DNA of 64,000 bases from Candidatus Moraniibacteriota bacterium (GCA_016699875.1 CP064989.1:1013332-1077331); one strand, 5' to 3'. Counted from the stretch's first letter, positions 2,869-54,593 are shown. Notes: generated by a model not told the origin, from the letters alone. Program-made: numbers and translations.

Positions 2869-5800
2869 TTGGTGAGCCTTCTCGGAGGAAATCTTGACAG
2901 TGACAGTGACCATCTGTTCGGCGACCCAAAGGTACTCGGTCTGCTCGGCAATGCGCGGGAAGACGACGGCTTCGATCCGTCCGGTCGTATCTTCGACGGT
3001 GGCGAAGTACATCGTCTTCTGGTCTTTGGTATAGGCTTTTCGGAGCGCGGAGATGACGCCGCCCACCTGCGCGATCGCGCCTTCGGAGAGCTTTTCGACT
3101 TCGTGCACGGGCGTTGCGATTTCCGCAAGATATTCTTGGTAGTCGCTTGCCGGATGATCGCTCACATAGAGTCCGAGGAGTTCTTTTTCCCACTGGAGTT
3201 TTTCGTGCTTGGTGGCGGGGGCAACCGGCGTGAGGCGGATAGCGCTCTTTTCGATCGGCATGTCGCGGAAGAGGCTCATCGAATGCGTCGCCTTAGTCTT
3301 CTCGCTGTTCTTTGAGTACAACAAAATGGTGTCGACGCTCTCAAGGAGGCTCTTGCGTTCGCCGAAGGCGTTGAGTCCGCCCACTTTCGCGAGCGCTTCG
3401 ATGGATTTTTTGTTGAGGTCTTTGGTGCGGACACGTTCGATGAAGTCGGTGAGGTCTTTGAATTTTCCGTTTTTCTTTCGCTCGCGAACGATTTCTTCGG
3501 TGACGGTCGCGCCCACATTTTTCACGGCATTGAGTCCGAATCGGACGCGCTCGACACCGTCGTCTCCGCGGATGACGGCGAATTCCTCGAAACTCTCATT
3601 GACCGATGGCGGCAAGACTTCGATACCCATGTCGCGCGTCTCGGCGACTTCGATCGAGACGCGGTCGGAGTTGCTCTGATCGCTTGTGAGCAGCGCCGCC
3701 ATAAATTCCGCCGGATAGTGCGCTTTGAGATAGGCGGTTTGGTAGCCGATGAGTCCGTAGCAGGCGGCGTGAGATCGGTTGAATCCGTAACCGGCAAAGG
3801 GCTCGATGAAGGCGAAGACTTTTTCAGCGATAGTCTTTGAGATGCCTTGCTTGACGCAACCGTCGATGAATTTGATTTTCTGTTCTTTAATGAGCTCCAA
3901 AATCTTTTTCCCCATCGCTTTGCGGAGTACATCCGCTTCGCCCAGAGTGAATCCGGCAAGATCTTGCGCGATGCGCATGACTTGTTCCTGATAGACGGCG
4001 ACGCCGTAGCTCGTGCCGAGTATGGGCTCGAGCTTTGGGTGAAGGTACTCGACGGTCTTGGTGCCGTGCTTCCCGGCGATGAAGTCCGGGATCCAGTCCA
4101 TGGGACCGGGGCGGTAGAGGGCGACCATGGCGATGATGTCTTCGAGGACGGTCGGCTTCAATTGTTTGAGGTAGCGCTTCATGCCGTTTGATTCGAGCTG
4201 GAAGACGCCGGTCGTGTGCGCTTTCTGGAGAAGAGCAAAGGTTGCTTCGTCGTCGAGCGGGAGCTTATCCATAATGTCGGCGGTCGAAACGGTGTCGGGA
4301 TTGAGTCCGAGTTTTTCGGCGAGGTGTTCGAGCTTGCCGAGCGCCTTCAAAATACGGATGGTGTCTTGAATGATGGTGAGGTTTTTGAGACCGAGGAAGT
4401 CCATTTTCAAGAGGCCGATTTTTTCGACGTAACTTGATTTGGTTGAAGAAGAGTATTGCGTCACGATGCCTTCTTTGGAACCGGAAATATTTTGAATCGG
4501 CGTGTATTCGGTGACCGGGTCTTTGGTGATGACGACGCCGCAGGCATGCATGGAGGCGTGCCGCGAGAGACCTTCTATCTTCTTGGCGACGTCGATGAGG
4601 CGTTTGGCGTCGGGGTCGCGATCGTAGAGCGCTTTGAAATCGGGCGCTTCTTGAAGTGCCTTTTCCATCGAGTGGAACTGTGGGATGAGCTTGGCGACGG
4701 TGTCGCAGAGGCTGTAGGAGAGTCCGAGGGCGCGGCCGGCGTCGCGAATCGCGGCGCGCGCCGCCATGGTTCCGAAGGTGATGATCTGTGCGACGTGGTC
4801 GTTGCCATAGCGTCGACGGACATAATTCAAGACATCGTCGCGGCGGTTGTCGGCGAAGTCCATGTCGACATCGGGCATAGAAATGCGCTCCGGATTGAGG
4901 AATCGCTCGAAGAGGAGATTGTATTTGATCGGATCCATGTTGGTGATGCCGGTCAAATAGGCGACGAAACTTCCGGCGGCGCTCCCTCTTCCGGGGCCTA
5001 CGACGATGCCTTCGTGCTTTGCCCAGTTGACGAAGTCTTGAACGATCAAGAAGTACGAGGCGAAGCCAGTTTTCTCGATCACACCGAGTTCGTACTCCAT
5101 GCGCTCGCGGTGCTGGTCGGTGATATCGGTACCGAAGCGCTTGGCAAGCCCCGCTTCGCAGAGTTCGCGCAGATAAGCTTCAGGAGTCTTGCCGTCGGGC
5201 ACGTCGAAATGCGGGAGCTGGGTTTCTCCGAGTTTGATGTGAACATCACAGCGGTCCGCGATTTTCCCGGCATTTTCGATGGCCTCCGGAATGTCCTTGA
5301 AGAATGCCTCCATGTCTTCGGGCGAACGGAGCGAGAGGTCGAGGTGTCGAAGCGAGAGTCGGTTTTCGTCGGAAACTTTTTTGTTGTCGCGGATACAAAG
5401 GAGGATATCTTGGAGATCGCTGTCTTCGGGGCGGACATAGTGCACATCGTTCGCCGCGACGAGCGGAATGCCGGTTTCTCGCGATATCTGGACAAGTCCG
5501 GTATTGGCAACAATTTGATTTTCGTAGTCGCCGTGCGGTTGGAGTTCGAGGAAGAAGTTGCCTTTGCCGAAAATGTCTTCGTATTCGAGGGCTGCTTCCC
5601 GCGCGCGCTCTTCGCTTCCGGCGATGACGAGCGACGGCACTTCGCCGGTCACCGATCCGGAAAGAGCAATGATGCCCTCATGGTATTTCCGCAAGAGTGC
5701 CTTGTCGACGCGCGCTTTGTAGTAGAAGCCCTCGATATGCGACTCGGAGATGATCTTCATGAGATTCTGGTAGCCAGCTTGTGTCTCGGCGAGAAGGACG

Positions 5801-11291: not shown

Positions 11292-11381
11292 TACCGATCT
11301 TTCGGCGCGATGCGGTTTCTGATATACTGAAGATACGGGTGGAAAACTTGTTTGAGGGATTGCAATACCAATACCATCGTC

Positions 11382-11945
11382 ATGGAAACGGAAAAAAAAG
11401 AAAAGACTCAATCAAGATGGTTTTTCGGGGTCTTTTTCTTTTTGGTAACTCTTTCGATTTTTGCGACTTTCTATCGGGTGTTTATTGCGAAGGACTATTT
11501 GGTGGACATAGAGGTGTCGTGTTCTCCGGAGAGGGCGGCTTGTTTTGCTCGAGATATCTGCGATACCGACGATGAGTCGTGCGGAGAGGATGATATTCCG
11601 ATTGAAACGTCATATTACAAAATCGTTGAAAGGAAAGCCTACAATTTTCCGGAGACATGCGCCTCCGGAACCCTTGATTCGCCGGAGTGTGCTGATTTAT
11701 CCTGTCGTCTGGGAGAAATAGATTGTACGGAGACCTACTGTTCCGATGAAACAGTGCCGGAAGGTGAGACCTGTGTCGGCCCGGGATTTGTCCTGGAAGA
11801 CTCCGAAGGTGCAACACTACCGAATGATTCGATGGGAGAGGGTGGTGAAGATAGCGAAGATGGTGCCGCAGGCAGTGGCACTGGCAGTGAAATTTCTCCG
11901 GAAGCGGGAATGGATGAAGAGGGTGGAGCTGTACAGATGAACTAG
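11382..11945 (+). CDS. hypothetical membrane-anchored, acidic, Cys-rich protein
   Basis: N-terminal TM helix (WFFGVFFFLVTLSIFATFYRVFI) followed by a D/E/C-rich ectodomain; no known motif. Start chosen at METEKKEK. Confidence 0.5.
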   Translation: METEKKEKTQSRWFFGVFFFLVTLSIFATFYRVFIAKDYLVDIEVSCSPERAACFARDICDTDDESCGEDDIPIETSYYKIVERKAYNFPETCASGTLDSPECADLSCRLGEIDCTETYCSDETVPEGETCVGPGFVLEDSEGATLPNDSMGEGGEDSEDGAAGSGTGSEISPEAGMDEEGGAVQMN

Positions 11946-12237
11946 GTGGATTCGGATTGATTTGACAGAATTTCTGAAATGTTTTCTCTATGGTGAAGTG
12001 GAAATATTCGCTAAACAGAAGGGAACGGTTGGGATTTTCCCGAATATAAAGGCTTTTCAAATGGACATATTTGTCCATTTTTTTTGACTTTTATTATTGA
12101 CATAAACAAATATTTATTGTAAAAAGTAAAGTTTACGAGGAATTATCATGAAGAAATCAGGATGTTTTTCTGTGGTAGGTGAGATGATTTGAAGCGAACG
12201 AGAAAGAGAAAGGGGGATAAACCTTTGGACAAAAGAA

Positions 12238-12876
12238 GTGAGTAGTCGTGATTTCATGGCTTTCATGGGGGCATTAGCGGGAGTGATTTCTCTGCTTGCT
12301 TATATTCCTTATATTTCCTCGATTATTCGAAGGAAGACTGTCCCAAGTCGAACGTCATTTTGGATATTATTCTTCGTGGGGTTGGTTACATTATTAGCAT
12401 ATAAGGGGTCTGGCGCGTCCAATACCCTTTTTTTTCTTATCGGAGATTTGGTTGGATGTTTCTTGATTGCCCTCCTGAGTCTTCTTTATGGAAAGGATGG
12501 GACGCAGACTTTTGACAAGCTTTGTTTTTTTGGAGCCATTGTGAGTTTGGGATTGTGGTTTTTCTTCCAGGAATATCCTTCGGTGGCGCTTATATCGAGC
12601 TTGTCGGTTGAGTTTGTTGCCATGATTCCTATTTTGAAAAAAGCGTACTTAAATCCGTTTGAAGAAGATATAACAACATGGCTTCTTTCTTTTGTTGCGG
12701 CAGTCATGAATATTTATGCGATAGAGACGTGGAGCTTTCTTGTTGTTCTTCTTCCGTTTTATGAGTTTGCGATTGTTGGAATGATCGTTCTGTTTCTTTC
12801 GAGAAGAAGGAAAAGCAAGGTTCCTTTGAATGACATCGCACCGCATCTAAAAATGGTTCGACTGGTAAGATATTGA
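12238..12876 (+). CDS. hypothetical polytopic membrane protein (about 6 TM helices)
   Basis: Multiple hydrophobic helices; the stop overlaps the start of the next gene by 4 nt (translational coupling). A+T-rich relative to its flanks. Confidence 0.6.
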   Translation: MSSRDFMAFMGALAGVISLLAYIPYISSIIRRKTVPSRTSFWILFFVGLVTLLAYKGSGASNTLFFLIGDLVGCFLIALLSLLYGKDGTQTFDKLCFFGAIVSLGLWFFFQEYPSVALISSLSVEFVAMIPILKKAYLNPFEEDITTWLLSFVAAVMNIYAIETWSFLVVLLPFYEFAIVGMIVLFLSRRRKSKVPLNDIAPHLKMVRLVRY

Positions 12877-14249
12877 ATATGACTGATAATGACATTGATT
12901 TGAAGGAGAGTCTAAGGAAAGAAGTCCAGAAAATATATACTCCGTTGTCTGTTGCAAAGGAAGAAATTTGGAAAAGATGGGGAAATAAAGAGCTGCAAAA
13001 GAATGTGAGTGAGTTTTTGGGCATTAAAGCTGAACGATTTTTTAAAGAAAGTCCGGTCGCCTGTTTGGGGAGGAATATTGTGAGTCCTACTATGGAGTTT
13101 AGCTATTTCTTGGAATTAGCCAAAGAGATAGATCTTGAACCTCTGGTTATAGAACATGTTAAAGATAAGTTTGTTACAGAAAACCCGGATAAGTACTATT
13201 TAGCGAAATTGTATTTTTACAATAAGAACGGAAGGAAGAATGATAGGAACATTGACACTGATTTTATCAACGCCATTGATTTCAATAAATATCAAGGAGA
13301 AAAAATATGTAACATAAATACAATGTGGGGAGAGAATCTTGTTGATTTTCAACATAGAATTTCTCATGACTTATTTCCTAATCACTGGAGGAAAAGTATC
13401 GATATATCGGAAATACTGGATTTAAATCACAAGGGGTTGAGTCAGTGTTACGATAAATATCTAGCTCTTTTTATCTTCGGAGGCGTGTTGTTCGAAAACT
13501 TCTTGTTAAGTAAAAACATCAAGGACTTTACACATAGAGTTGTGGTCCCCGCATTTGCCAAACTTGAAAAACTTTTTGGCATTAAGCCTCTTATTGTTCC
13601 TTTATCTTCAATAGAGGATCAGGATGACTTGTATTGGTGGTGTTATCCAACTTTAATTAAAGATGATATTATGGAACATATAACAATTGGTGGAGCAAAG
13701 TACAGGAAGATACATCACGGAGAGTTTAAGAATGCTCTTATAAAGCTTAAACCATCAAGGATAGTACCAACTGGAGTGGGTGTTTTTGCTGTTAGAAACC
13801 TAAGCAAGGGAATTATAATTGGTGATGTAAGGTTTTTAAGCGAAGACTTTTTTCTTACTCGAAATGACTATGAAAAGGTAGACCAGGAATCAAGGGGTGT
13901 AATAAAAAACTTCTGCATCCCAACTCCTGACGGTTTCTTTGCTCCTAAAGATGTTAATTATCTCTCTATCCCTTGGTATATCAATCATTCTTGTGATGGC
14001 AATGTTGGGTATGATAAAAATGGAAATTTTGTTACCATAAAAAACATTAAAAAGGATGACGAGCTCTCCTACGATTATGGATTAGCTGTGTCGGATCCTG
14101 GTTTTAAATTATATTGTAAGTGTAGATCAAAAAAATGCAGGAAAGTCATTACCGGGAATGATTGGAAGAATGTTGAATATCGAAAGAAAAACTATTCGCA
14201 TATGACCCCAGAGCTCAAGGAACTCATAGAGAAAACATATAAAGATTAA
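12873..14249 (+). CDS. SET-domain protein (putative protein-lysine methyltransferase) with an unrecognised ~290-aa N-terminal domain
   Basis: C-terminal SET signatures: GVGVFAVRNLSKGIIIGDV (GxG region), INHSCDGN (the NHSCxPN motif), ELSYDYG (the ELxxDY motif) and post-SET cysteines CKCRSKKC. The N-terminal 290 aa is K/N/I-rich with no motif I recognise. Confidence 0.75.
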   Translation: MNMTDNDIDLKESLRKEVQKIYTPLSVAKEEIWKRWGNKELQKNVSEFLGIKAERFFKESPVACLGRNIVSPTMEFSYFLELAKEIDLEPLVIEHVKDKFVTENPDKYYLAKLYFYNKNGRKNDRNIDTDFINAIDFNKYQGEKICNINTMWGENLVDFQHRISHDLFPNHWRKSIDISEILDLNHKGLSQCYDKYLALFIFGGVLFENFLLSKNIKDFTHRVVVPAFAKLEKLFGIKPLIVPLSSIEDQDDLYWWCYPTLIKDDIMEHITIGGAKYRKIHHGEFKNALIKLKPSRIVPTGVGVFAVRNLSKGIIIGDVRFLSEDFFLTRNDYEKVDQESRGVIKNFCIPTPDGFFAPKDVNYLSIPWYINHSCDGNVGYDKNGNFVTIKNIKKDDELSYDYGLAVSDPGFKLYCKCRSKKCRKVITGNDWKNVEYRKKNYSHMTPELKELIEKTYKD

Positions 14250-14255
14250 AGTTAT

Positions 14256-15932
14256 ATGGCATACAATTTGGTGACAAATATAGAATCTTGTTATGTATAT
14301 ATAAAAGATGCTCCTTTCGGTTTGATCTATTACTCGCATATTCCAACAGGAATTGCAGCGTTGTCTATAGGATTGTTTGTCTTTTACAGCAACAGAAAGT
14401 TTTTACTGAACAAGCTACTCTTTCTTTTCTCCCTCACCTTTTTTTTCTGGTCATTTGCTGATCTCGTTACGTGGACGTATAGCTACAATAGCGTCTACAC
14501 GATGTTTGCGTGGTCGTTATTGGGCGTTACAAATGTTCTACTTTTTGTCGTGAGCCTATATTTCACGTATGTCTTTCTCGATAGGAGAGATGTAACATCT
14601 TCGTTAAAATTGATTTTTGGCGCATTATTGCTTCCAGCTATTGTAATTACACCTACCTATTTTAACCTGGGCGAATTTAGTAATATTGATTGCTCTCCAA
14701 TTGAGGGGGATTACTTTAATTACTACCAGTACTTCATTAATGGTTTAGTGGTTATATGGATTGTTTTCCTATCATTTAGGAGGTATAGATTAGCGGGAAA
14801 AGAGCTTAAGAAACAAATAATGCTTTTTTCCTTTGGCATGAATTTTTTCTTAATGCTGTTTCTTTTGGCAGGGGTTTTGGCTCCTTACCTGTATGGACTT
14901 GGTGTTGTAAATGATTACAGAATTGAGTCTATGGGCATGTTTGGAATGCCCATTTTTCTTGGCCTCCTTGCGTACCTCATCGTTCGATATCAGGCATTCA
15001 ATGTAAAAATTATTGCAACACAAGCATTAGTGGTGACACTGGCGATATTGATTGGCTCACAGCTTTTCTTTATCAGGTCGCAGATAAATTTCATACTTAC
15101 ATCAATTACATTTCTCCTGTCTGTTCTCTTTGGCATTCTCCTCATCCGTTCTGTGAAGAATGAAATTCGACGGAAGGAAGAGCTGCAGATTGTGACGGAC
15201 AAATTGGCGGCGGCGAATGTGGAGCTCAAGCGTCTTGATCAGTCGAAGCCGGAGTTCATTTCGATCGCGTCGCATCAGTTGCGGACGCCATTGACGGCAA
15301 TCAAGGGATTTGTCTCGCTTTTGCTTGAAGGATCGTACGGCAAGGTGCCGGCACCGATCACGGATGTACTCGATAAGATTTATACGGCAAATGATCGAAT
15401 CGTGCACTTGGTGGAAGATTTGCTCAACATTTCCCGTATGGAATCGGGGCGGCTCAAGTACGAGTATGCAGAGGTGAATATTCCGGAATTCTTGGATGAA
15501 CTTCGCGATACGTTTGCGATCGTTGCCAAGAAGAAGGGTTTGGAGTTGACATTTGAGACGGTGACAGACTCGATCAAGCCGGCATGGGTGGATCGACAGA
15601 AGGCCTTCGAAGTAGTCTCGAATCTTATCGACAATGCGCTCAAGTATACGGCTGCCGGGAGTGTCCGGGTTCGCACGGAGGATGCGAGCGGTTTCATCCG
15701 TATCTCCGTGACGGATACAGGCGTTGGCATTGATTCCGATATGATGTCCGCCTTGTTTCAGAAGTTCTCTCGCGGCAAGGAGAGCGGCAAGATGCACGTG
15801 AGCGGCACCGGTCTCGGACTCTATGTCGGGAAGTCCATGATCGAGGCGCAAGGCGGCCACATCGGCGTCACCTCCGAAGGCACCGGCAAAGGCTCGACCT
15901 TCTTCGTGGAATTACCGGTGAAGCAAGGGTAA
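14256..15932 (+). CDS. sensor histidine kinase with N-terminal multi-TM (7-8 helix) sensor region
   Basis: H-box FISIASHQLRTPLTAIKGF; N/G boxes (NLIDNALKYT, DTGVGI, GTGLGLYV). About 300 aa of consecutive TM helices precede the kinase core. No response regulator adjacent. Confidence 0.88.
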   Translation: MAYNLVTNIESCYVYIKDAPFGLIYYSHIPTGIAALSIGLFVFYSNRKFLLNKLLFLFSLTFFFWSFADLVTWTYSYNSVYTMFAWSLLGVTNVLLFVVSLYFTYVFLDRRDVTSSLKLIFGALLLPAIVITPTYFNLGEFSNIDCSPIEGDYFNYYQYFINGLVVIWIVFLSFRRYRLAGKELKKQIMLFSFGMNFFLMLFLLAGVLAPYLYGLGVVNDYRIESMGMFGMPIFLGLLAYLIVRYQAFNVKIIATQALVVTLAILIGSQLFFIRSQINFILTSITFLLSVLFGILLIRSVKNEIRRKEELQIVTDKLAAANVELKRLDQSKPEFISIASHQLRTPLTAIKGFVSLLLEGSYGKVPAPITDVLDKIYTANDRIVHLVEDLLNISRMESGRLKYEYAEVNIPEFLDELRDTFAIVAKKKGLELTFETVTDSIKPAWVDRQKAFEVVSNLIDNALKYTAAGSVRVRTEDASGFIRISVTDTGVGIDSDMMSALFQKFSRGKESGKMHVSGTGLGLYVGKSMIEAQGGHIGVTSEGTGKGSTFFVELPVKQG

Positions 15933-16198
15933 TTCTTTCAGATATCAAGAGTCGTAATATTGACAGAGAATCTCTTATATGATACCCTACCGAAGGTAGG
16001 AAGCAGGGGATAGATAAGCAGAAGTGAGACCTATGAATTCCAGATACTGCCAGATGAATACGTGGGGACATACCGGCGTGGATATACGCGGCGGCGTTTT
16101 TGCGTCGCCAATCGCCAGTTCTATTCTGTTAAGCCGTGATTATCGAAATTTCTCTTGTCCGTCACTCTTTCGATAAAATATATCCTCTTGGAAGGTTT

Positions 16199-16228
16199 CC
16201 CGGCTCAACAGAAGAGTCGGGTTTTTTG
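16199..16228 (+). terminator. orphan intrinsic terminator in the HK-MFS intergenic region
   Basis: cccggctc/gagtcggg stem (one G-U) followed by ttttttg. It lies 265 nt after the HK stop and 50 nt before the MFS start. Confidence 0.45.
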
Positions 16229-17521: not shown

Positions 17522-17594
17522 TCTTTCTGTGTGTCCCTGGCAGGAATCGAACCTGCGGCCTTCTGGACCGGAACCAGACGCTCTATCCACTGAG
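17522..17594 (-). tRNA. tRNA-Arg (anticodon CCG)
   Basis: Reverse complement GTCTCTG-TA-GCTC-AGTGGATA-GAGC-G-TCTGG-TTCCGGT-CCAGA-AGGCC-GCAGG-TTCGATT-CCTGC-CAGGGAC-A gives a full cloverleaf, 73 nt. CCA is not encoded. Confidence 0.85.
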
Positions 17595-17749
17595 CTACAG
17601 AGACGGGAATGGATGATTGGTATGAGGGGTGGAGCGGATTGCGTTGCGATGTTCGAAACCCTCCGAACAGTATACTTTCTCCGGGGGGTATTGTACAATA
17701 GGGGCACGGAAAACAGATGATTCCCGGTCTTTTCCGGCACTGAGACGCT

Positions 17750-18538: not shown

Positions 18539-18658
18539 AAATGTAGCTCACTATGTTTATGGTCGACAGCTTGCATGTTTCCTTATTGGGACCTAGAGTG
18601 AAAGGAATGTACCTGTGCGATAAGGCAAAGGGGCGATAGGATGTGTAGCCGTATATTT

Positions 18659-19102
18659 ATGGCACGAGTATTATTGGTTGAAGATGATCCGATGATCTCG
18701 GAGATTTATCAGCGGAAGTTCTCCGCTGCCGGGTTTGAAGTGCGCATTGCCGCTTCAGGGAAGGCTGTTTTGGATATTTTGCGGACAGAATCATTCGACC
18801 TGGTGCTACTCGATATTGTCTTACCGGAGATGAGCGGAATGGAGATTTTGGAAAAGCTTCGCAATCCGAAAAACGGCTACAATTCCGATATCAAGATCGT
18901 GATGTTTAGTAGTTTGAGCGAGAAGGATGACCGGGATCGGGCCGTAGCTCTTGGTGCGAGCGGCTTTATCTCGAAAACGGAAGTTTCTCCCTCCGAACTG
19001 ATTGTTGAGGTGACGCGATTTTTGCATCAGTTTGAAGCGCAAGCAAGCAGTACGGATCGGAAAGGGATATCCATCTCAAACGTCCCGAATATATCAGCGT
19101 GA
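18659..19102 (+). CDS. single-domain response-regulator receiver (CheY-like) protein
   Basis: VLLVEDDPMISEIY...LVLLDIVLPEMSGMEIL...KIVMFSS; no output domain. Confidence 0.8.
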   Translation: MARVLLVEDDPMISEIYQRKFSAAGFEVRIAASGKAVLDILRTESFDLVLLDIVLPEMSGMEILEKLRNPKNGYNSDIKIVMFSSLSEKDDRDRAVALGASGFISKTEVSPSELIVEVTRFLHQFEAQASSTDRKGISISNVPNISA

Positions 19103-29932: not shown

Positions 29933-30532
29933 ATGTTTTCAGAGCCCGAACAGGATATTATTGAGCGTTCGAAACAGTTTGTAAAGGATTCTTTCGTTGC
30001 ACATCCGCATTTTAGTTTTAACGACTGGAGTGTAATGTACAACCATAGCTGCACAGTCGCCTCTTTTGCTGGAATGATTGGAGCGAATGTTGTATGCGAT
30101 AAATTACTTGTGATACTTGGAGCTCTGTTGCACGACATTGGGAAAACATATGAAGCAGATGAGGAGACTTTGCATTTTGAACATGAATCCTTCAATCTCA
30201 TTGTTGCTGAGCCGTTTCTGGAAACATTAGGGTTATCTCCTGAACGATTGGAGAGACTGAAGCGACTTGTTTCTTATCAAGACAAAGAAGGTGTTGAGAT
30301 GAAAGTTATAAAAGATGCTGATGCTATTGCCTTGCCTGCAGACAAGCGGCTTTCTATGCTCTATATCGAATGGGCTGTTAAAGAAGGTTTGAGAAACTCT
30401 ATTGAAAGGAAAATCCGAAAATTCGACAAACTTCATTTTGAACTGAGTAAAGAAATTGGAAAACCACTGTTTAGTCGAATGAAGCAAGATTGGGATGAGT
30501 ATCGGAGAACAATTAATGCAAAATCATTATGA
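29933..30532 (+). CDS. HD-domain phosphohydrolase
   Basis: HD motif LGALLHDIGKTYE; ~199 aa. Between dcd and thyA, overlapping thyA by 4 nt. Confidence 0.7.
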   Translation: MFSEPEQDIIERSKQFVKDSFVAHPHFSFNDWSVMYNHSCTVASFAGMIGANVVCDKLLVILGALLHDIGKTYEADEETLHFEHESFNLIVAEPFLETLGLSPERLERLKRLVSYQDKEGVEMKVIKDADAIALPADKRLSMLYIEWAVKEGLRNSIERKIRKFDKLHFELSKEIGKPLFSRMKQDWDEYRRTINAKSL

Positions 30533-31524
30533 AAAAGCATCCTGAGTATCAATACCTCGATCTCCTGAAAGATATATTGAAGAACGGTGTATGGCAGGAA
30601 GATAAAGGGACTGGTGATCGCACCAAGAGTGTCTTTGGACGGCAGATTCGTTTTGATCTTTCGGAAGGATTCCCCCTTCTTACTACCAAAAAAACTTACT
30701 GGAAAGGAATCGTGTATGAACTTGCTTGGTTTTTGTCTGGGCAGGCGAATATTCGGTTTCTAGTCGAAAATGGTGTGCACATTTGGGATGACTATCCTTA
30801 TCGGCTGTATCGAGAACGGATGGAAAAAGAACATCTTCCCGAAATAACGAAAGAAGAATTTGTCGAGAAGATTAAAACTGATCTTTCTTTTTCAAAGAAG
30901 TTTGGAGAATTGCGGAATATTTATGGCGAGATGTGGCGGCGGTGGCCAGCGAAAGATGGTCGAACTATTGATCAGCTACGATGGGCGGTAGAAGAGATTA
31001 CTCGTGACTCGGATTGTCATAATGCAATTGTAACGTCATGGAATCCAGAATATCTCTACACTATGGCGAAACCGGAAGAGGCGCTTCGATTTCCGATTTG
31101 CCATAATATGTATCAGTTGAATGTAAAGAATCGTCGTGTCTCACTTCATTTGTATCAACGGTCGGCGGATATCTTTCTTGGTGTCCCGTTTAATATTGCG
31201 AGCTATGCGCTCTTGACGTTTCTTATCGCCAAGGCGACTGGGTATAAACCGGGAGAATTTGTTCATACTTTTGGCGATGCGCATATATATGAGGATCATA
31301 TGGATCAAGTGAAAGAGCAACTGCAACGGAAGCCGCTTCCGTTTCCGAAAGTGAGAATAAGCTCAACGTTTCGGGGCATAGATGATTTTCATCCAGAACA
31401 GGTAAAGTTGGTTGGGTATCAGTCACATTCTCCTCTTAAAGCGCGTATGGCTCTAGTTGGCGGGGTGAGTTCAAAATCATGGAAAGCCTATGCCAAAAAG
31501 TCAAAGAAGGAAAATAAGAGGTAA
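30529..31524 (+). CDS. thyA: thymidylate synthase (ThyA) with a small-domain insert and a Lys-rich C-terminal extension
   Basis: ICHNMYQLNV...LHLYQRSADIFLGVPFNIASYALLTFLIA...FGDAHIY active-site region. At 331 aa it is long: an insert lies near WDDYPY...NPEY, and a ~22-aa tail (VGGVSSKSWKAYAKKSKKENKR) follows the usual C-terminus. Confidence 0.9.
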   Translation: MKKHPEYQYLDLLKDILKNGVWQEDKGTGDRTKSVFGRQIRFDLSEGFPLLTTKKTYWKGIVYELAWFLSGQANIRFLVENGVHIWDDYPYRLYRERMEKEHLPEITKEEFVEKIKTDLSFSKKFGELRNIYGEMWRRWPAKDGRTIDQLRWAVEEITRDSDCHNAIVTSWNPEYLYTMAKPEEALRFPICHNMYQLNVKNRRVSLHLYQRSADIFLGVPFNIASYALLTFLIAKATGYKPGEFVHTFGDAHIYEDHMDQVKEQLQRKPLPFPKVRISSTFRGIDDFHPEQVKLVGYQSHSPLKARMALVGGVSSKSWKAYAKKSKKENKR

Positions 31525-38112: not shown

Positions 38113-38667
38113 ATGGAGCAGACATTCAAAATGCTTTTGGTGGATGATGATGTGGATACGCGGAGCTTGTATGCGGAGGTGTTCCGTGCGGCGGGCTTTG
38201 AGGTGCGAGAGGCGAAGGATGGACTTGAGGGTCTTGAAATGGCAACAGCGGAACGACCGGATGTAGTGTTTACCGGTATTATCATGCCTCGCATGGACGG
38301 CTTTGCGTTGACGGAAGCTCTGCGAAGCAATGTGACTATGGCTTCGATTCCCATTGCATTCTCCTCGCACTTGGGGCGACAAGAAGATCAAAAGCGCGCA
38401 AAAGATCTTGGCGTTGATGATTTCATCGTGCGCGATGTAGTGACGCCCAATGAGGTAGTGGTGCGCATCCAATCTCTCGTTTCGCATAGCGAGTATATGC
38501 TTGCTTTCGATATCCGCGCACTTGATGCTCAGAAGTTGGCAGCGGATCTTCGCTTGAATGCAAACTTCGTTTGTTCGGAAAATGGCGGTCGGCAGTTTGC
38601 GCTCCGTCTCAAAGTGAAAAACGCTTCAACGCGAACATTTGAAGCTGAGCTAGTCTGTATCCCGTGA
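38113..38667 (+). CDS. response-regulator receiver protein with a short C-terminal extension (no recognisable output domain)
   Basis: MLLVDDDVDTRSLYAEV...DVVFTGIIMPRMDGFAL... Confidence 0.75.
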   Translation: MEQTFKMLLVDDDVDTRSLYAEVFRAAGFEVREAKDGLEGLEMATAERPDVVFTGIIMPRMDGFALTEALRSNVTMASIPIAFSSHLGRQEDQKRAKDLGVDDFIVRDVVTPNEVVVRIQSLVSHSEYMLAFDIRALDAQKLAADLRLNANFVCSENGGRQFALRLKVKNASTRTFEAELVCIP

Positions 38668-40713: not shown

Positions 40714-40815
40714 GGTATCTCGAGCTTGCTTGAGAGCTTCTTGAAAATTCACAGGCAACACCTCCGAGGAAGTAGTATTTCTGTATTGGGAATGAACGTC
40801 TTTTGCCAATTCCGG

Positions 40816-40899
40816 TGCCGATGGCGGGAGTTGAACCCGCATGGGCTTGCGCCCACACGATTTTGAGTCGTGCGTGTCTGCCAGTTCCACCACATCGGC
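40816..40899 (-). tRNA. tRNA-Leu (anticodon CAA)
   Basis: Reverse complement GCCGATG-TG-GTG-GAACTGGCAGA-CAC-G-CACGA-CTCAAAA-TCGTG-long variable arm (TGGGCGCAAGCCCAT)-GCGGG-TTCAACT-CCCGC-CATCGGC-A; 84 nt. Confidence 0.85.
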
Positions 40900-46480: not shown

Positions 46481-48997
46481 ATGACGGTGCCATTGATGCG
46501 CGCACTTGAGAGTGCGACTCTTGGAAAAAATACGGAGAGCATCTCCAAAGAAGGAGAAGGAAAAGAGGAGAAAGAAGAGATAGGAAATGATCGCAATGTA
46601 GAAGATAAACAAAGCGAGGAAAGATTTAAGGAAAGAGCCGTGGCGATTGATGATCGTACGGAAGAACTTTCCGTCGAGAGTGTAAAAAACAGAGTGCGTG
46701 CGTGTTCCTCGGGTGTGAGTGAATTGGATATGGAAAAAGCGCTCGCCGGAAAGACGAGCGAGGAGATAAAAAGAATTGAAAACGAGTCAAGGCAGGTAGC
46801 TTCCGGTGTTGTTACGGAGAGTCTGGGCTATTTAAAGGAGATGCTGAGCAATGTTCCCGGATCGGCGAAAAGAGTTGTTGAGGGGATCGGTTCTGCGGCG
46901 GCGCATCCTGTCCGGACGGTTCACGAAACTTTCGATCTTATTTTCACCGTTCTTTCTGGGAAGCTTGAAGGGATGTTGGGATACGAAAATCTCCCTGAGC
47001 AACAAGCGCTTGAGAAGATGCAATTGGACTTTGGGAAAACGCATGGATCAATTTCTGCGGAACTCGAGACTTTTAAAAAAGATCCTGTGGGGGAAGGGCT
47101 CGCTATTGCGAGTATCGTGACGGGAGGTGTGGGTATAGCTCGCAAGGCAGCTGGTTTTGCTGGGAAAATGGGGTCCGCTGGGAGGGTTGCGGAAATCGAG
47201 CAAGCGGGAGCGATTGTCCGTACGGGAGAAGGCGTGACAAAAGCGGAACAAGCGGTATCGAGGGGTGTCCCTGTCGAAGAAACGGCGAATACTGCCTTTT
47301 CTGCTGAAAAGATAATAGGGAAAGCCGGTGGCAAGGGGGAATTTCCGGGATCTGTTTCTCTCGAAGCGAAAGTCGCTACCCTTGGTGCGGAGGGGAAGAA
47401 TCTCAATCGTATCAGAGAGGTAGAAGAGGTTTTGCCGGACGCTGAGTTTCCAGTGGAAACAGCTGATGTTCCTGTAAGTATGAATGCTACGAAAGACATT
47501 TCGCGTATCGGCGCTATTGAAAAAGCGGGAGCTCTGGGCGGAGCGGTGAAGTCGGGAGAGATGAGCGGCCTAAGATCTGAAGAGGTGGAATCAAAGAAAG
47601 AAAAATTTTTAACGGGAGAAGAACGACAGGACATTCGATCTTTCAGCAAACGGTTCGCGCCTTTTCGGAGGGATGAGCTAGCTCAAAATATTCGCGACCA
47701 GCGAAGAACTGATCGTCAGGAAAGGGCAAAAGTAACTGAAGAAAACGAAGGTCGAGACAGAAAACGTGAGGAAATCTCGACTGATATCGAAGCACTGAAA
47801 ATTCGGCAGTCTGAACTTGAAAAGACCGTTAGTGAAATTGAGCTGTCGATCCGTTCCGATAAGTCACGATTATTCTCTCGAATCCAAGAGTTTTTCGGAA
47901 GAAAGAATCTTAAGAGAGAAAGGACGTTGGAAACAACCCAAGAACAATTGGATCAGGTTCAGAATGAAATCGAAGAAAAGAACAAGCTCTTGGGCGAAAT
48001 GCAAGATATTCTTTTTGAAGAAACGCATCTTGAAAAAGCAAAAAGTGCATTAGAAGAGTTTTATGGTCGTCAGAGAGACATCAAGACAATGTATGAGTCG
48101 GAGAGTGATATTCGGGATGTTGAGAGTATTTCAAGGAAGTATAATACACTCTTCGTGCACTCTATGCCGGAGAGCAGCGTGTTTCAGAAAGGTACAGGGG
48201 TAAATAATCCAGGGATAAACACTGGAGAGGATTTTGGTGCCAAGGAAAGAGTGAATTTAATTCGTGGTATTAAGCCGACCATTTCAACCTCGACATTGGA
48301 GAATTTAGATTATGAGACAAGTAAGCGCGACGAGATGTACCAAGCCGGCGTTATTATTGGAGGTGGTCGAGTCGTGAGTGCCTATCGAGGAGATGCTGCA
48401 ACTCTTACGCACAGTCTATTTTCAAAGAAAGCGAAATACGATAGAAATCCTTTTTTGAGTGACACGAGTATACAGAATGATATTGAGGGAAGAATAGACG
48501 ACGCTATAAATAAACGATTTCCCGAGTCACCAGCAGCTGGCAAGAGAGTCTTGTCTGAAGAGGCATTGGGAAGAAGTGGTAATCCTGTTAATATAGACGG
48601 GTCTGGATATGCATATGGATGGAACGAGCTGGTTGTTGAAGATCCAAAAATTTCCGGTTTATATATACGAGAGGGGTTTCACTTTGATCCATGGAAATAC
48701 GTTGATTTAAGCGAAAGGCTTAACATCCCCTTGTACTTTTTGGGAACGGGAGGAGAGATTCGAAAATGGGATGAGGAATGGTTGTTATCACAAGCCGGAT
48801 TTGAAAGTTGGGAATTTGAAGACCGCATGAGAAAATCATCTTTTGATGAGATTATGAATTCAACTCCAAATGTCACTCAAGAAGAGAGGCTAGATATAAT
48901 TGATGACCTTCTGAAAGGAAGTATTCTTCGCGGAGAGAAGTTTTCTCGAGAAGTTCAGAATATGAAACGTGCTTTTAAACAGCGAACGGTAAAGTAA
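46481..48997 (+). CDS. large (838 aa) acidic coiled-coil-rich hypothetical protein, no recognisable domains
   Basis: Long uninterrupted ORF, E/K-rich; the central region is predicted coiled coil; the C-terminal ~240 aa are globular (…GYAYGWNELVVEDPKISGLYIREGFHFDPWKYV...). No TM helix or signal peptide. Confidence 0.6.
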   Translation: MTVPLMRALESATLGKNTESISKEGEGKEEKEEIGNDRNVEDKQSEERFKERAVAIDDRTEELSVESVKNRVRACSSGVSELDMEKALAGKTSEEIKRIENESRQVASGVVTESLGYLKEMLSNVPGSAKRVVEGIGSAAAHPVRTVHETFDLIFTVLSGKLEGMLGYENLPEQQALEKMQLDFGKTHGSISAELETFKKDPVGEGLAIASIVTGGVGIARKAAGFAGKMGSAGRVAEIEQAGAIVRTGEGVTKAEQAVSRGVPVEETANTAFSAEKIIGKAGGKGEFPGSVSLEAKVATLGAEGKNLNRIREVEEVLPDAEFPVETADVPVSMNATKDISRIGAIEKAGALGGAVKSGEMSGLRSEEVESKKEKFLTGEERQDIRSFSKRFAPFRRDELAQNIRDQRRTDRQERAKVTEENEGRDRKREEISTDIEALKIRQSELEKTVSEIELSIRSDKSRLFSRIQEFFGRKNLKRERTLETTQEQLDQVQNEIEEKNKLLGEMQDILFEETHLEKAKSALEEFYGRQRDIKTMYESESDIRDVESISRKYNTLFVHSMPESSVFQKGTGVNNPGINTGEDFGAKERVNLIRGIKPTISTSTLENLDYETSKRDEMYQAGVIIGGGRVVSAYRGDAATLTHSLFSKKAKYDRNPFLSDTSIQNDIEGRIDDAINKRFPESPAAGKRVLSEEALGRSGNPVNIDGSGYAYGWNELVVEDPKISGLYIREGFHFDPWKYVDLSERLNIPLYFLGTGGEIRKWDEEWLLSQAGFESWEFEDRMRKSSFDEIMNSTPNVTQEERLDIIDDLLKGSILRGEKFSREVQNMKRAFKQRTVK

Positions 48998-49103
48998 TAT
49001 ATTCATGTGAGGTTTTTTGTATATATACGAAGTTTTATCCATATTGCTATTCTACTTGTGTCGCCCTCGCCATTCTCTATTCAATAACTCTCTTTTGCTC
49101 CCT

Positions 49104-49388
49104 ATGCTTGATATTCAATATATTCGTGAGAAGAAAGATGTGGTTGCGAAGGCGGCAGCTAACAAGGGATTGTCGCTTGATGTGGAGCGGCTCTTGGCTG
49201 TTGATGCGGAGCGCATTTTGCTTCTGCAAGACACTGAGGAACTCAAGTCTATCAAGAATGATCTGAATGATCTCATGGCAAAGGCGACGCCAAAAGAGCG
49301 GTCGGAAATTATCGCGCGGGGAACAACAGTGCTTGATCAATTGATCAAAATGAAGAATATGATCTTTCGGAAGAGCTTTCGCTTTTGA
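49104..49388 (+). pseudogene. diverged partial copy of the serS 5' end (N-terminal tRNA-binding arm only, 94 codons)
   Basis: MLDIQYIREKKDVVAKAAANKGLSLDVERLLAVDAERILLLQDTEELKSIKNDLNDLMAK... aligns with the first ~95 aa of the intact SerRS at 52656. About 40 nt around the ATG, including 5'-UTR bases, are near-identical to 52641-52680. Confidence 0.6.
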
Positions 49389-50986
49389 GGAAAAATTTTC
49401 AGGTGCGCGAGGGACAGACGGTCAAAGAACATTTCGAGGAAACATTCTTAAAGAGAATCGGTATAAAGGACATAGAGGGTGCTATGGCGTACATCGAGGA
49501 ACGGAAGCGTCAGACGGACACGCGCAATAGATCATCCGTGCTTGATGGTTCTGTGCTGATAATGTCAAGCGATCTCATCAAGGGGTTCGATTCTCGCTTC
49601 CTTGACAAACTGCTTGATCGCGGGTTCGTTTCGCCGGAATTTGTCGGTGCGGAGACGCACGATGCAAAAACAAAATTAAAGCAGGGCGATTCGACGCCGT
49701 GGGATACCGATCTTGAGCGAGTAAAAGGAACGAGTATTTCTGAAGCGCTTGAGAGATCTTCTCTGGCGGATGGCTATGGCGATGTTGTTGCCGTTATTCG
49801 AAATCGAGGGCAATTCAATGAGACAAAGATTGGCGAACCGGCGATTGATGACGGTCGGATGGAACTTTTTGAAAGTGGTGTTATCAGGTCCGATCATATG
49901 GGCATCCGGACCGGATTTGGATCCACTGAAATCGATGCTCTTATTGCGAAGGGAGAAGTATCTGAAAGGAGTATGGATGATATTCGCTTTTCGATTGCTA
50001 AAAAAGGCTTCTATATTCCCGTTGTTGACCGTTCCGGTCGCGTGATTTTTATGCCCGGAGAATTTGACGAATACCGAAAAATATTCCGAGGTCTTGACCG
50101 GTATCACGGAGATCCGATGAGCGTGAGTGAAGATTGGAGGCAATCGCCACATGTAAACGAGATAGAGTCCATCGCTCAAACGAAAGAAAATATCGCGTAC
50201 CTTGAGAGTGCTGGAGGCGCTCTTTGCGATGAGCTCAAAGGGCTCCTTGCGGAATCAGGCATAGCTTTGCGCGCGGAGAAATTTGATGATGGAGTTGCCG
50301 GCGCGGTCGTGATCGATACCGGATCGACCGGTCGTGGCGCCGCGCTTGATGGCAATATTGACTTTGATTTTGTGCTCAAGGTGAACGATAATGATTTTGA
50401 AAAAGCAAAAGTGGCGGTGGAAAAAATGAAAGACTGGTATCCATTGGATACCTCATACGAGGTAAACGGTATGCGAACGTACCGCTTCAAGGGTTTTGAA
50501 CGCGATGGCAAGCATATTGATCTGGACGTGAGCGTGGTGAGAAAATCTGATTCCGAAAGTATGGATGCGAACGAGGCGATATCGAGAAAATATGAATCGA
50601 TACGGAAAAACTTCGGAGAAGAAGTCCTGCTGGATGTTTTGAGCAATGTGCGGTTTGCAAAAAAGAAATTGAAAGAAGCTGGCTGTTACAAGAAAGGTAT
50701 TGATCGAAGTGCGGGACAAGAGGGTGGGCTTGGCGGTATTGGTGTCGAGACATGGATATTGAAACACGATGGAGATGCTGTGCGGGCATTTACGGATTTT
50801 TACGGAAATGCATATGAGAATGGAGGTCTTCTTTCTTTCGAAAACTTCAAGAAAAAGTATAAAGTTTTTGGCGCAGGCAAAAATATTCGCGGTGATACTC
50901 GTTCGGAAAATTTTGTTGAGAAAATGGATGAGGTAGGATATTTAAAAATGGCCGAAGTGGCAAAGTCGATAGTTGAAATGAAGTAA
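49385..50986 (+). CDS. hypothetical protein with a central Pol-beta-superfamily nucleotidyltransferase motif; N-terminal ~290 aa unrecognised
   Basis: VVIDTGSTGRGAALDGNIDFDFVLKV matches the G[SG]-x(9-13)-D-x-[DE] core and resembles the cGAS/DncV-type GS...GRG..(S)D[IV]D arrangement. A likely third acidic residue lies in HIDLDVSVV. The downstream helical region reads GGLGGIGVETWIL. The ORF-track start is a TTG; the real start is uncertain (GTG at 49403 or a later ATG). Confidence 0.55.
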   Translation: MRKNFQVREGQTVKEHFEETFLKRIGIKDIEGAMAYIEERKRQTDTRNRSSVLDGSVLIMSSDLIKGFDSRFLDKLLDRGFVSPEFVGAETHDAKTKLKQGDSTPWDTDLERVKGTSISEALERSSLADGYGDVVAVIRNRGQFNETKIGEPAIDDGRMELFESGVIRSDHMGIRTGFGSTEIDALIAKGEVSERSMDDIRFSIAKKGFYIPVVDRSGRVIFMPGEFDEYRKIFRGLDRYHGDPMSVSEDWRQSPHVNEIESIAQTKENIAYLESAGGALCDELKGLLAESGIALRAEKFDDGVAGAVVIDTGSTGRGAALDGNIDFDFVLKVNDNDFEKAKVAVEKMKDWYPLDTSYEVNGMRTYRFKGFERDGKHIDLDVSVVRKSDSESMDANEAISRKYESIRKNFGEEVLLDVLSNVRFAKKKLKEAGCYKKGIDRSAGQEGGLGGIGVETWILKHDGDAVRAFTDFYGNAYENGGLLSFENFKKKYKVFGAGKNIRGDTRSENFVEKMDEVGYLKMAEVAKSIVEMK

Positions 50987-54485: not shown

Positions 54486-54557
54486 GGGTCGGTAGCTCAG
54501 TGGTAGAGCAGCTCCCTTTTAAGGAGAATGTCGTGAGTTCGATCCTCACCCGACCCA
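54486..54557 (+). tRNA. tRNA-Lys (anticodon TTT)
   Basis: GGGTCGG-TA-GCTC-AGTGGTA-GAGC-A-GCTCC-CTTTTAA-GGAGA-ATGTC-GTGAG-TTCGATC-CTCAC-CCGACCC-A cloverleaf. One mismatch at the top of the anticodon stem. Confidence 0.8.
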
Positions 54558-54593
54558 CCTTTCAAAACTTCCAGCGGGCAGTAAATCACACCA

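Follow-up and report, generated by a model that had tools for sequence, protein, structure and literature searches.

In the genome of Candidatus Moraniibacteriota bacterium we analysed a stretch of 64,000 nt (GCA_016699875.1 CP064989.1:1013332-1077331; hereafter the window), in which three consecutive genes at 12238-15932 encode a polytopic membrane protein, a protein with a SET domain and a sensor histidine kinase with several transmembrane (TM) segments. This unit is one local form of an uncharacterised two-component module that is widespread in Patescibacteria (Candidate Phyla Radiation, CPR). The constant element of the module is a kinase with an ~8-TM sensor and a HisKA/HATPase core, and its usual upstream partner is a domain of ~260 aa, represented in the window by the N-terminal part of gene 2 and termed N-dom below. 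Optional partners are an amine-modifying enzyme (SET, separate or fused, or GNAT) and a small polytopic membrane protein, and a Cys-rich protein and a response regulator are often found nearby. From sequence comparisons with other loci (numbered L, with individual proteins numbered P) we conclude that a cassette of ~2.35 kb, most like the low-GC locus L008, appears to have replaced a standalone SET gene together with the resident sensor half of the kinase. We read the unit, with moderate confidence, as a CPR module operon for making or tailoring, moving and sensing a signal, the specificity of which is changed by cassette exchange. The parts of the unit are as follows.

12238-12876, plus strand: gene 1, a 7-TM protein of the PQ-loop/SWEET fold (3+1+3 helices), apparently resident backbone save for its last ~25 codons
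12873-13670, plus strand: N-dom, residues 1-265 of gene 2, cytoplasmic, tentatively Rossmann/HUP-like, of an uncharacterised family
13773-14249, plus strand: SET domain, post-SET Cys cluster and terminal helix, the C-terminal part of gene 2
14256-15150, plus strand: sensor half of the kinase (gene 3), ~8 hydrophobic segments without a large extracytoplasmic domain, low in GC and hypervariable
15151-15932, plus strand: catalytic half of the kinase, HisKA and HATPase_c, with a GC content at third codon positions (GC3) of 0.68, conserved with the nearest relatives
12801-15181: putative exchanged cassette, comprising the last ~25 codons of gene 1, gene 2 and the sensor half, with its right junction at ~15129-15181

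A recurrent module in Patescibacteria

A preliminary description of this locus, made from the sequence of the window, had called the product of gene 2 a SET-domain protein. Pfam does place a SET domain at residues 301-403, but residues 1-265 form a separate conserved domain; what had been overlooked is that another, far commoner domain, the constant partner of the kinase, makes up two thirds of the "SET protein". Standalone proteins of ~260 aa that match N-dom at 40-60% identity occur in Parcubacteria, Moraniibacteriota and Peribacteria, and the N-dom family comprises 956 clusters at 50% identity (E ≤ 1e-3). In all of the first N-dom contexts that we looked up, SET-fused or not, a kinase of ~550-605 aa came next, and these N-dom-linked kinases are homologous to that of the window over their full length, TM segments included, at 38-43% identity.

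A scan of 185,579 species-representative genomes for N-dom gave 159 matches, the best 80 of which were kept and correspond to 79 loci; after our own calling of open reading frames (ORFs), 75 non-redundant loci with an N-dom ORF remained. The kinase follows N-dom in 57 of these 75 loci, with no more than SET, Cys-rich or second N-dom genes intervening, and in three the contig ends before any kinase is visible. SET lies between, before or fused to N-dom in 16 loci, and an unrelated small TM protein stands just 5′ of N-dom in 19. Homologues of the Cys-rich protein encoded at 11352-11945 in the window occur within three genes of N-dom in 34 of the 75 loci: they lie upstream of N-dom in L001, L005 and L008, upstream of a trio of gene-1 homologue, SET and kinase in L091 and, as a variant arrangement, between N-dom and kinase in L048 and L086.

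The family of gene 1 is small (16 proteins), and a homologue is present in one of the 79 scanned N-dom loci (L043). Three distinct contexts were looked up, and in all of them the gene-1 homologue is followed by a standalone SET gene (160-171 aa) and an 8-TM kinase, without N-dom. A 214-aa TM protein at the same position in L005 was considered as a counterpart of gene 1 and rejected: BLAST detected no similarity between the two, and the L005 protein belongs to the other small-TM family, found in the 19 loci mentioned above, for which Pfam gave no match. The three genes do occur together in relatives, as gene 1–SET–kinase trios in three contexts and as combinations of N-dom, SET and kinase in dozens of genomes.

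Gene fusions connect the same partners. At least two separate SET clades include fusions with N-dom; GNAT is joined to it in P0147, P0161 and P0187, and P0182 carries a gene-1-like 7-TM domain fused to N-dom (36% identity to gene 1, E 2e-24). In both fusion contexts that were looked up (P0182 and P0187) the kinase is next. Because of this recurrent linkage and these fusions we consider the three genes functionally linked, and the link reaches the Cys-rich gene and, probably, the response regulator encoded at 18641-19102.

Several loci vary the arrangement. N-dom is duplicated in tandem or nearby in L011, L024/L025/L030, L049 and L058, and L071 has module-type kinases on both sides of the N-dom gene. 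Contigs labelled Nitrospirae, Proteobacteria or Desulfobacterales (L018, L021, L042, L054 and others) carry N-dom followed by SET without a kinase, and these could be mis-binned CPR sequences or real occurrences outside the CPR. Upstream of N-dom and kinase in L006 (1206-4680) lie two radical-SAM genes, one of them with a SPASM domain, together with ORFs of 47-48 aa, a gene for a GNAT protein and a partial N-dom copy of 86 aa (the N-terminus, 58% identical to residues 12-80), a cluster that looks like one for peptide maturation; a radical-SAM gene and small ORFs are likewise found ~3 kb 5′ of the gene 1–SET–kinase trio of L093. In L096 a PlsC-type acyltransferase (PF01553, 870-1532) directly precedes a GNAT–N-dom fusion and kinase, so that in this single locus the module might be connected with the modification of lipids or aminolipids. 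The contig of P0004 (L009) encodes a 174-aa protein (3970-4494) with a weak match in Pfam to the lysine methyltransferase DOT1, 5′ of a standalone N-dom and kinase, which may be another amine- or lysine-modifying partner.

Cassette exchange within the unit

The nearest relatives are L088, L090 and L093 (GC ~0.44-0.45), L091 being more distant. Similarity to these relatives is confined to the two ends of the unit. The leader and gene 1 are 69-79% identical to them in nucleotide sequence, and the catalytic half of the kinase is 81.5% identical to that of L088 from 15129 onward, with amino acid identities of 89% to L088, 83% to L093 and 67% to L091. By comparison, the sensor half of the kinase reaches 35-38% amino acid identity to the relatives (37% to L088) and the SET domain 29-34%. 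No DNA similarity to 12801-15129 was detected in L088, L090 or L093, and the nucleotide alignments to L088 and L090 cover 12206-12801 and 15129-15935 only. The best match inside 12801-15129 is L008, a locus with the same N-dom–SET fusion on a contig with a GC content of 0.375 throughout, at 69% amino acid identity; it aligns to 12917-14986 at 71% nucleotide identity, and residues 1-247 of the kinase are 63-83% identical to it in 40-residue windows.

These comparisons place the junctions of the putative cassette near the end of gene 1 and at the boundary between sensor and dimerisation domain, while the leader, most of gene 1 and the catalytic half of the kinase, at 72-82% nucleotide identity to L088, L090 and L093, look resident. 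Since both junctions lie inside homologous genes, homologous replacement is indicated. The horizontal acquisition first proposed for this unit is thus correct in kind, but its boundaries shift to 12801 and ~15130-15181, and the event would be a replacement in place and not the arrival of a new three-gene island. A contig from another sample, L007 (Logan SRR14932694), is 97.4% identical to the window in nucleotide sequence and spans exactly 12801-15181. It is suggestive, though no more than that, that L007 was broken where the assembly graph branches or co-occurring strains diverge, with several combinations of cassette and backbone in that sample. The search with the sensor half returned no full-length donor kinase; the best match was 58% identical over 61% of the query (P0287), and the others comprised matches at 47-49% over the full length and a same-species fragment, which leaves the reciprocal side of the mosaic unproven.

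The same kind of mosaic is found in other pairs of loci, with junctions inside the kinase at residues ~218-317. Kinase halves and sensor halves are 99% and 39% identical in L043/L093, 98% and 50% in L047/L079 (N-dom 37%), 87% and 35% in L029/L033 (N-dom 45%) and 84% and 30% in L029/L041 (N-dom 37%). In L023/L056 the kinase half (97%) and the sensor half (91%) are both conserved and N-dom is not (53-54%); here the flanking proteins are 82-99% identical, most of them 92-99%, and of the two clean breakpoints one falls in the conserved 5′ end of the N-dom gene and the other where the kinase gene begins. The flanks of L068/L078 are 77-82% identical and the kinases only 43%. Overall, the A+T-rich tract marks the hypervariable, exchangeable part of the locus, i.e., the accessory enzymes and the sensor half of the kinase.

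A simple inserted island was rejected, as synteny across CPR genomes extends over the upstream Cys-rich gene, N-dom and the kinase. It is very improbable that the tract is an unrelated foreign island or an anti-phage defence island. Its low GC would suit such an origin, as would weak PADLOC matches that fall in the generic HATPase region of the kinase only, but the linkage is recurrent, several fusions arose independently, gene 1 and the kinase half look resident, and PADLOC returned nothing for genes 1 and 2 (nor did NCBIfam, which for the kinase likewise gave only generic kinase-core or HATPase matches). Moreover, none of the ORFs annotated between 8.7 and 19.1 kb encodes an integrase or transposase and no repeat boundaries were seen, although no dedicated search was run. 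Elsewhere in the window, 857-3995 matches L091 (7882-10397) at 72-75% nucleotide identity over a miaA-like gene and its neighbour, which supports close genomes with local rearrangement.

Base composition

The GC content of 11950-15150 is 0.364, compared with a mean of 0.494 (sd 0.025, minimum 0.433) in the other 3.2-kb windows of the stretch (z = -5.2). The GC3 is 0.41 in gene 1, 0.32-0.37 in gene 2 and 0.41 in residues 1-300 of the kinase, and 0.47-0.57 in the flanking genes. The 3′ half of the kinase gene has a GC of 0.53 and a GC3 of 0.68, and the low-GC tract stops within this gene at ~15150, where the last TM segment meets HisKA. The low GC that had been ascribed to the whole unit relative to its flanks therefore applies to 11950-15150 but not to the GC-rich 3′ half of the kinase. 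The amino acid composition of membrane proteins was considered as the cause and rejected, since GC3 drops too and the adjacent membrane protein of the major facilitator superfamily (MFS) has a GC3 of 0.48.

The offset is a property of the family as well as of the window. Over 53 loci (L001-L087) GC3 averages 0.32 in N-dom, 0.35 in the sensor half and 0.48 in the kinase half, with flanks ranging from 0.25 to 0.75; these values are nearly independent of host GC3 (e.g., L082, L073, L063, L044 and L012). The kinase half is often GC-richer than the flanks in low-GC genomes (GC3 0.62 vs. 0.36 in L044), and the switch of composition in mid-kinase recurs where the module proteins are only 33-39% identical to those of the window. 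In two pairs of Peribacteria loci, L073/L082 and L063/L077, upstream synteny is kept and divergence is similar in module and flanking proteins, which suggests vertical inheritance, and yet the GC3 of N-dom and sensor half is 0.26-0.36 against 0.55-0.75 in the flanks. Either repeated uptake from a pool of low-GC alleles or maintenance of the composition itself would account for the low GC of these Peribacteria modules. If the module does keep its own A+T-rich composition in hosts of high GC3 (0.55-0.75), switching in mid-gene, this would imply selection on nucleotide composition itself.

These data bear on the explanation that the A+T-richness is intrinsic, i.e., due to amino acid content, codon or regulatory selection or local mutation and not to exchange. 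Both the low GC3 of N-dom and sensor half whatever the GC3 of the flanks, in the 53 loci, and the vertical-looking Peribacteria pairs speak for it. As an account of the window it is improbable, because replacement is seen directly there and in several near-identical pairs, GC3 itself is lowered, and that of the adjacent gene for an MFS protein is normal; an intrinsic cause may explain the family-wide offset but cannot explain 37% vs. 89% identity within one gene. In practical terms, an intragenic switch of composition of this kind can break assemblies, as in L007, which ends at both junctions, and can mimic contamination.

The encoded proteins

The SET domain of gene 2 is identified by PF00856 with 39.2 bits (cut-off 22.4; E 1e-9), and its catalytic and SAM-binding motifs and post-SET cluster are intact: GVGVFA (GxG), YINHSCDGN (NHSC), DELSYDY (ExxYDY) and CKCRSKKC (post-SET CxCx4C). 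N-dom matched no family when all 45 N-dom sequences were scanned against Pfam. A PDB profile search with the alignment of full-length gene 2 gave nothing at E ≤ 1, and Foldseek with N-dom against the PDB gave nothing at E ≤ 0.001. A Rossmann/HUP-like fold is our tentative assignment for N-dom; in the consensus of its alignment we saw neither HIGH and KMSKS nor HxGH and ISxxxR signatures. Its conserved motifs are IYTPL, RxIxSP, FHH, FENF and FGxKPLIVP, and ~55 positions, many of them polar, are highly conserved, with the copy in the window deviating at five. The N-terminal ~50 residues are the most conserved part of N-dom and are also a recombination junction.

Gene 3 encodes a standard class I sensor histidine kinase of the HisKA/HATPase_c type (HisKA E 3e-17, HATPase_c E 1e-23 in Pfam), and the H, N, G1 and G2 boxes can be read in its translation as SHQLRTPL, NLIDNALKYT, DTGVGI and GTGLGL. 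The sensor half of module kinases appears to be a distant relative of HisKA_7TM (PF16927). That of L088 scores 25.6 bits (cut-off 28.6), weak matches occur in L001 and L093, and the family is also listed for L096; the sensor half of the window itself gave nothing at E ≤ 1 against this family and no other Pfam match. The kinase had been described as an orphan, which it is not obviously: when regulators were looked up, a receiver-only response regulator was found at 18641-19102 (plus strand; Pfam Response_reg, E 1e-24), which we infer to be a candidate partner. This regulator is 44% identical to the one encoded directly after the kinase of L001, and a regulator directly follows the kinase in ten of the 75 loci and also in L095. 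A second receiver-domain coding region, at 38128-38493, is 35% identical to the regulator at 18641-19102.

Gene 1 has the seven-TM, 3+1+3 fold of the PQ-loop/SWEET (TOG) superfamily. It matches neither of the Pfam families PQ-loop (PF04193) and MtN3 (PF03083) at E ≤ 0.1, and the positions of its PQ motifs read P-Y and P-I, without the glutamine. Proteins with this fold transport cystine, basic amino acids or sugars, and full 7-TM proteins of this transporter fold are rare in bacteria. A nutrient might therefore be what the unit senses, with gene 1 importing a cationic amino acid or host compound, N-dom and SET binding or metabolising it and the kinase reading the occupancy of transporter or enzyme instead of a self-made signal, in analogy to the "trigger transporter" pairs DctA–DcuS and LysP–CadC. 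The fold of gene 1, its tight coupling to SET and kinase, its fusion to N-dom in P0182 and the reliance of CPR bacteria on imported metabolites all suit this explanation. We nevertheless consider it rather unlikely, given that proteins of the gene 1 type are rare (16 proteins, and L043 alone among 79 N-dom loci), that most loci carry the unrelated small TM protein (19 loci) or none, and that hypervariable, exchanged sensor halves would not be expected for a common nutrient.

A proposed signalling role

We propose instead that the module makes and reads a ligand. The cytoplasmic enzymes would make or tailor an amine-bearing ligand, N-dom in the role of a ligase-like or nucleotide-binding unit and SET in that of an N-methyltransferase; transfer of the ligand across the membrane would fall to the PQ-loop protein, and the intramembrane sensor half would detect it and signal via the conserved kinase core to the receiver protein. 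Swapping the cassette would then alter the specificity of both signal and sensor, much as it differs between pherotypes at the agr and comQXP loci. We favour this mechanism because the partners of N-dom are amine modifiers (SET and GNAT), because N-dom is linked, and in some cases fused, to a protein with a transporter fold, because the sensor is a bare TM bundle and because the pattern of polymorphism matches that of ComP.

A number of observations weigh against this reading. No gene for a ligand or signal precursor is evident, and the gaps of 2-6 nt within the cassette leave no room for a small ORF. The presence of SET is not clustered on the tree of sensor halves (permutation p = 0.078), so a sensor tuned to a SET-made product is unsupported, and in L023/L056 N-dom was swapped alone next to sensor halves that are 91% identical, which argues against strict pairing of enzyme and sensor; most pairs diverge in both N-dom and sensor half. 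The evidence for the fold of N-dom is weak, the SET part of the structure model has low confidence (predicted local distance difference test, pLDDT, of 34-82), and the N-dom of the window carries H160Q at a position that is invariant in the other 44 sequences. The regulator of the window is receiver-only and lies 2.7 kb away. A full-length donor kinase was not found, and exchange alone leaves the family-wide low GC unexplained, the vertical-looking Peribacteria pairs still being low in GC.

The main rival comes close to the lysine-methyl mark proposed in the preliminary description. It holds that the target of SET or GNAT is a lysine of the kinase, the regulator or N-dom, with N-dom serving as a kinase-docked adaptor, the result being a covalent tuning loosely like that by CheR/CheB. 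Modification of protein lysines is what SET and GNAT are chiefly known for, the motifs of SET are all preserved, fusions join N-dom to SET or GNAT, N-dom always stands beside the kinase, its conserved N-terminus with the recombination junction would fit a docking element on the kinase core, and the presence of SET is unrelated to sensor type. However, ~80% of the modules have no SET or GNAT nearby, so that lysine modification would not be the core function; it gives no role to the transporter-fold protein fused or linked to N-dom; the ~55 conserved, often polar residues of N-dom look more like a ligand-binding or catalytic site than an adaptor; and no evidence points to a candidate target. On balance we regard it as possible, if unlikely.

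The ligand-signalling reading can be carried further, into a pheromone-like system for strain-specific communication or kin discrimination in CPR bacteria. A small non-ribosomal, amino-acid-derived molecule would be built by N-dom as a synthetase-like ligase, methylation by SET, acetylation by GNAT or the lack of both would define a "dialect", the PQ-loop or another small membrane protein would move the molecule and matching 8-TM kinases would read it, with recombination of cassettes that hold enzyme and sensor creating new dialects. This is a speculative extension, which we think quite unlikely to be correct.

Operon structure, flanking genes and the rest of the window

The features around the unit are given below.

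11352-11945, plus strand: membrane-anchored protein rich in Cys, Asp and Glu (197 aa), the recurrent upstream companion of the module, of normal GC
12059-12080, plus strand: terminator-like hairpin followed by a T-run, upstream of gene 1 and just before the two hexamers
12086-12091 and 12099-12104, plus strand: hexamers TTGACT and TTGACA by direct reading, a candidate promoter only
16199-16221, plus strand: terminator-like hairpin of 8 bp, six of them G-C pairs, followed by a T-run, 3′ of the kinase gene
18641-19102, plus strand: the receiver-only response regulator discussed above

Reading of the ORFs bore out the three genes as first outlined, all on the plus strand: 12238-12876 (212 aa, GTG start), 12873-14249 (458 aa, TTG start) and 14256-15932 (558 aa). 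The gap of 6 nt between genes 2 and 3 is exact, with TAA at 14247-14249 and ATG at 14256. The 4-nt overlap reported between genes 1 and 2 exists with the TTG start at 12873, but with the ATG at 12879 it becomes a gap of 2 nt, and the latter is the likely start of gene 2; its homologue P0001, which is 98% identical, begins at the equivalent ATG. The genes are closely packed whichever start is taken. Because of the tight spacing and the terminator-like hairpins that bracket the genes, 12238-15932 fits a single operon.

The A+T-rich leader noted before measures 292 nt (11946-12237; GC 0.32-0.38), and 12048-12156 is 79% identical to the sequence upstream of gene 1 in L088. The TTGACA hexamer in it is real but lies at 12099-12104 and not at ~12088, the sequence at 12086-12091 being TTGACT. 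A sigma-70 promoter at TTGACA was rejected after a consensus scan gave no complete -35/-10 pair. The hairpin at 12059-12080 probably ends the upstream transcription unit. Between the candidate promoter and gene 1 lies a leader ORF of 14 codons at 12149-12193 (MKKSGCFSVVGEMI). The Cys-rich protein has one hydrophobic segment (residues 27-45), C-D-P and C-x-x-C repeats and an acidic tail, and matches nothing in Pfam or NCBIfam.

A tRNA-Arg(CCG) gene at 17531-17604 (minus strand) lies between the MFS and glycosyltransferase genes, ~1.6 kb 3′ of the kinase and not at a cassette junction; the other tRNA genes of the window are tRNA-Leu(CAA) at 40814-40899 (minus strand) and tRNA-Lys(UUU) at 54486-54559 (plus strand). 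Other patches of lower GC (0.41-0.46) are located at 29933-31524, with genes for an HD-domain protein and a thymidylate synthase, and at 46481-50986, with two large ORFs (838 and 533 aa) without a Pfam match. Over positions 1-64000 the GC skew is positive in each 1-kb bin and the cumulative skew climbs steadily, and nearly all ORFs examined are on the plus strand, which fits a single replication arm with co-oriented genes.

Comparison with known systems

The kinase core of the module is ordinary; what is new is that in CPR bacteria it comes with this accessory set (N-dom, SET or GNAT, PQ-loop protein and Cys-rich protein) and with a sensor cassette that can be exchanged. Limited searches of the literature, Pfam, NCBIfam and PADLOC yielded no description of either, which fits the initial impression that this is not a described system, as far as absence of evidence in limited resources can. 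CPR bacteria have tiny genomes with few regulatory systems and next to nothing is known of what they sense, and here the central protein of a widespread module belongs to no Pfam or NCBIfam family. The module further recruits enzyme types usually discussed for chromatin (SET and GNAT) and a transporter fold.

Taken singly, its proteins depart from their better known relatives. From other members of the PQ-loop/SWEET superfamily (cystinosin, PQLC2, SWEETs, SemiSWEETs and the KDEL receptor) gene 1 differs in sitting in a kinase operon. N-dom has no sequence similarity to any PDB chain, which sets it apart from the HUP-class enzymes, such as class I aminoacyl-tRNA synthetase cores, BshC, adenylyltransferases and cyclodipeptide synthases. 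The SET domain shares with known SET proteins the fold, the GxG, NHSC and ExxYDY motifs and the post-SET Cys cluster; however, those are secreted effectors or modifiers of chromatin proteins, whereas the SET domain of the module, from CPR bacteria that are free-living or episymbiotic, has N-dom and a sensor kinase as fusion partners or neighbours. To our knowledge, no SET effector or chromatin modifier comes from a two-component operon.

As a whole, the module resembles systems in which an enzyme gene adjoins the gene for a membrane-embedded receptor. In the Vibrio pairs LuxM–LuxN and CqsA–CqsS, the gene for a cytoplasmic enzyme stands beside that for a kinase which binds a small molecule through a sensor made up of TM helices only, and the module shares this adjacency of enzyme gene and TM-bundle kinase; the Vibrio enzyme families are unrelated to those of the module, and the Vibrio receptors are hybrid kinases. 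With ComQXPA of Bacillus subtilis and agrBDCA of Staphylococcus the module has in common that genes for modifying enzymes lie 5′ of a kinase with a multi-TM sensor in one operon. AgrC combines a variable membrane part with a conserved cytoplasmic part. In ComP the membrane domain at the N-terminus is variable and the cytoplasmic domain conserved (PMC4008528). Polymorphism between close relatives affects enzyme genes and sensor half in the module too, where kinase halves that are 84-99% identical contrast with sensor halves at 30-50%.

The differences are equally clear. The module has no ComX- or AgrD-like precursor gene, its enzymes are HUP-like, SET and GNAT instead of an isoprenyl transferase or the AgrB peptidase, its kinase is of the HisKA type (PF00512) and the ComP core of the PF07730 type, its nearby regulator is receiver-only whereas those of ComQXPA and agr bind DNA, and its enzyme can be swapped without the sensor (L023/L056). 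Because the precursor gene is absent, the unit is not a comQXP- or agr-type locus, yet its pattern of variation behaves like that of one: the specificity groups of agr and comQXP are typified by just such a hypervariable sensor on a conserved kinase half, and this combination suggests specificity at the level of strains in these cell-attached organisms.

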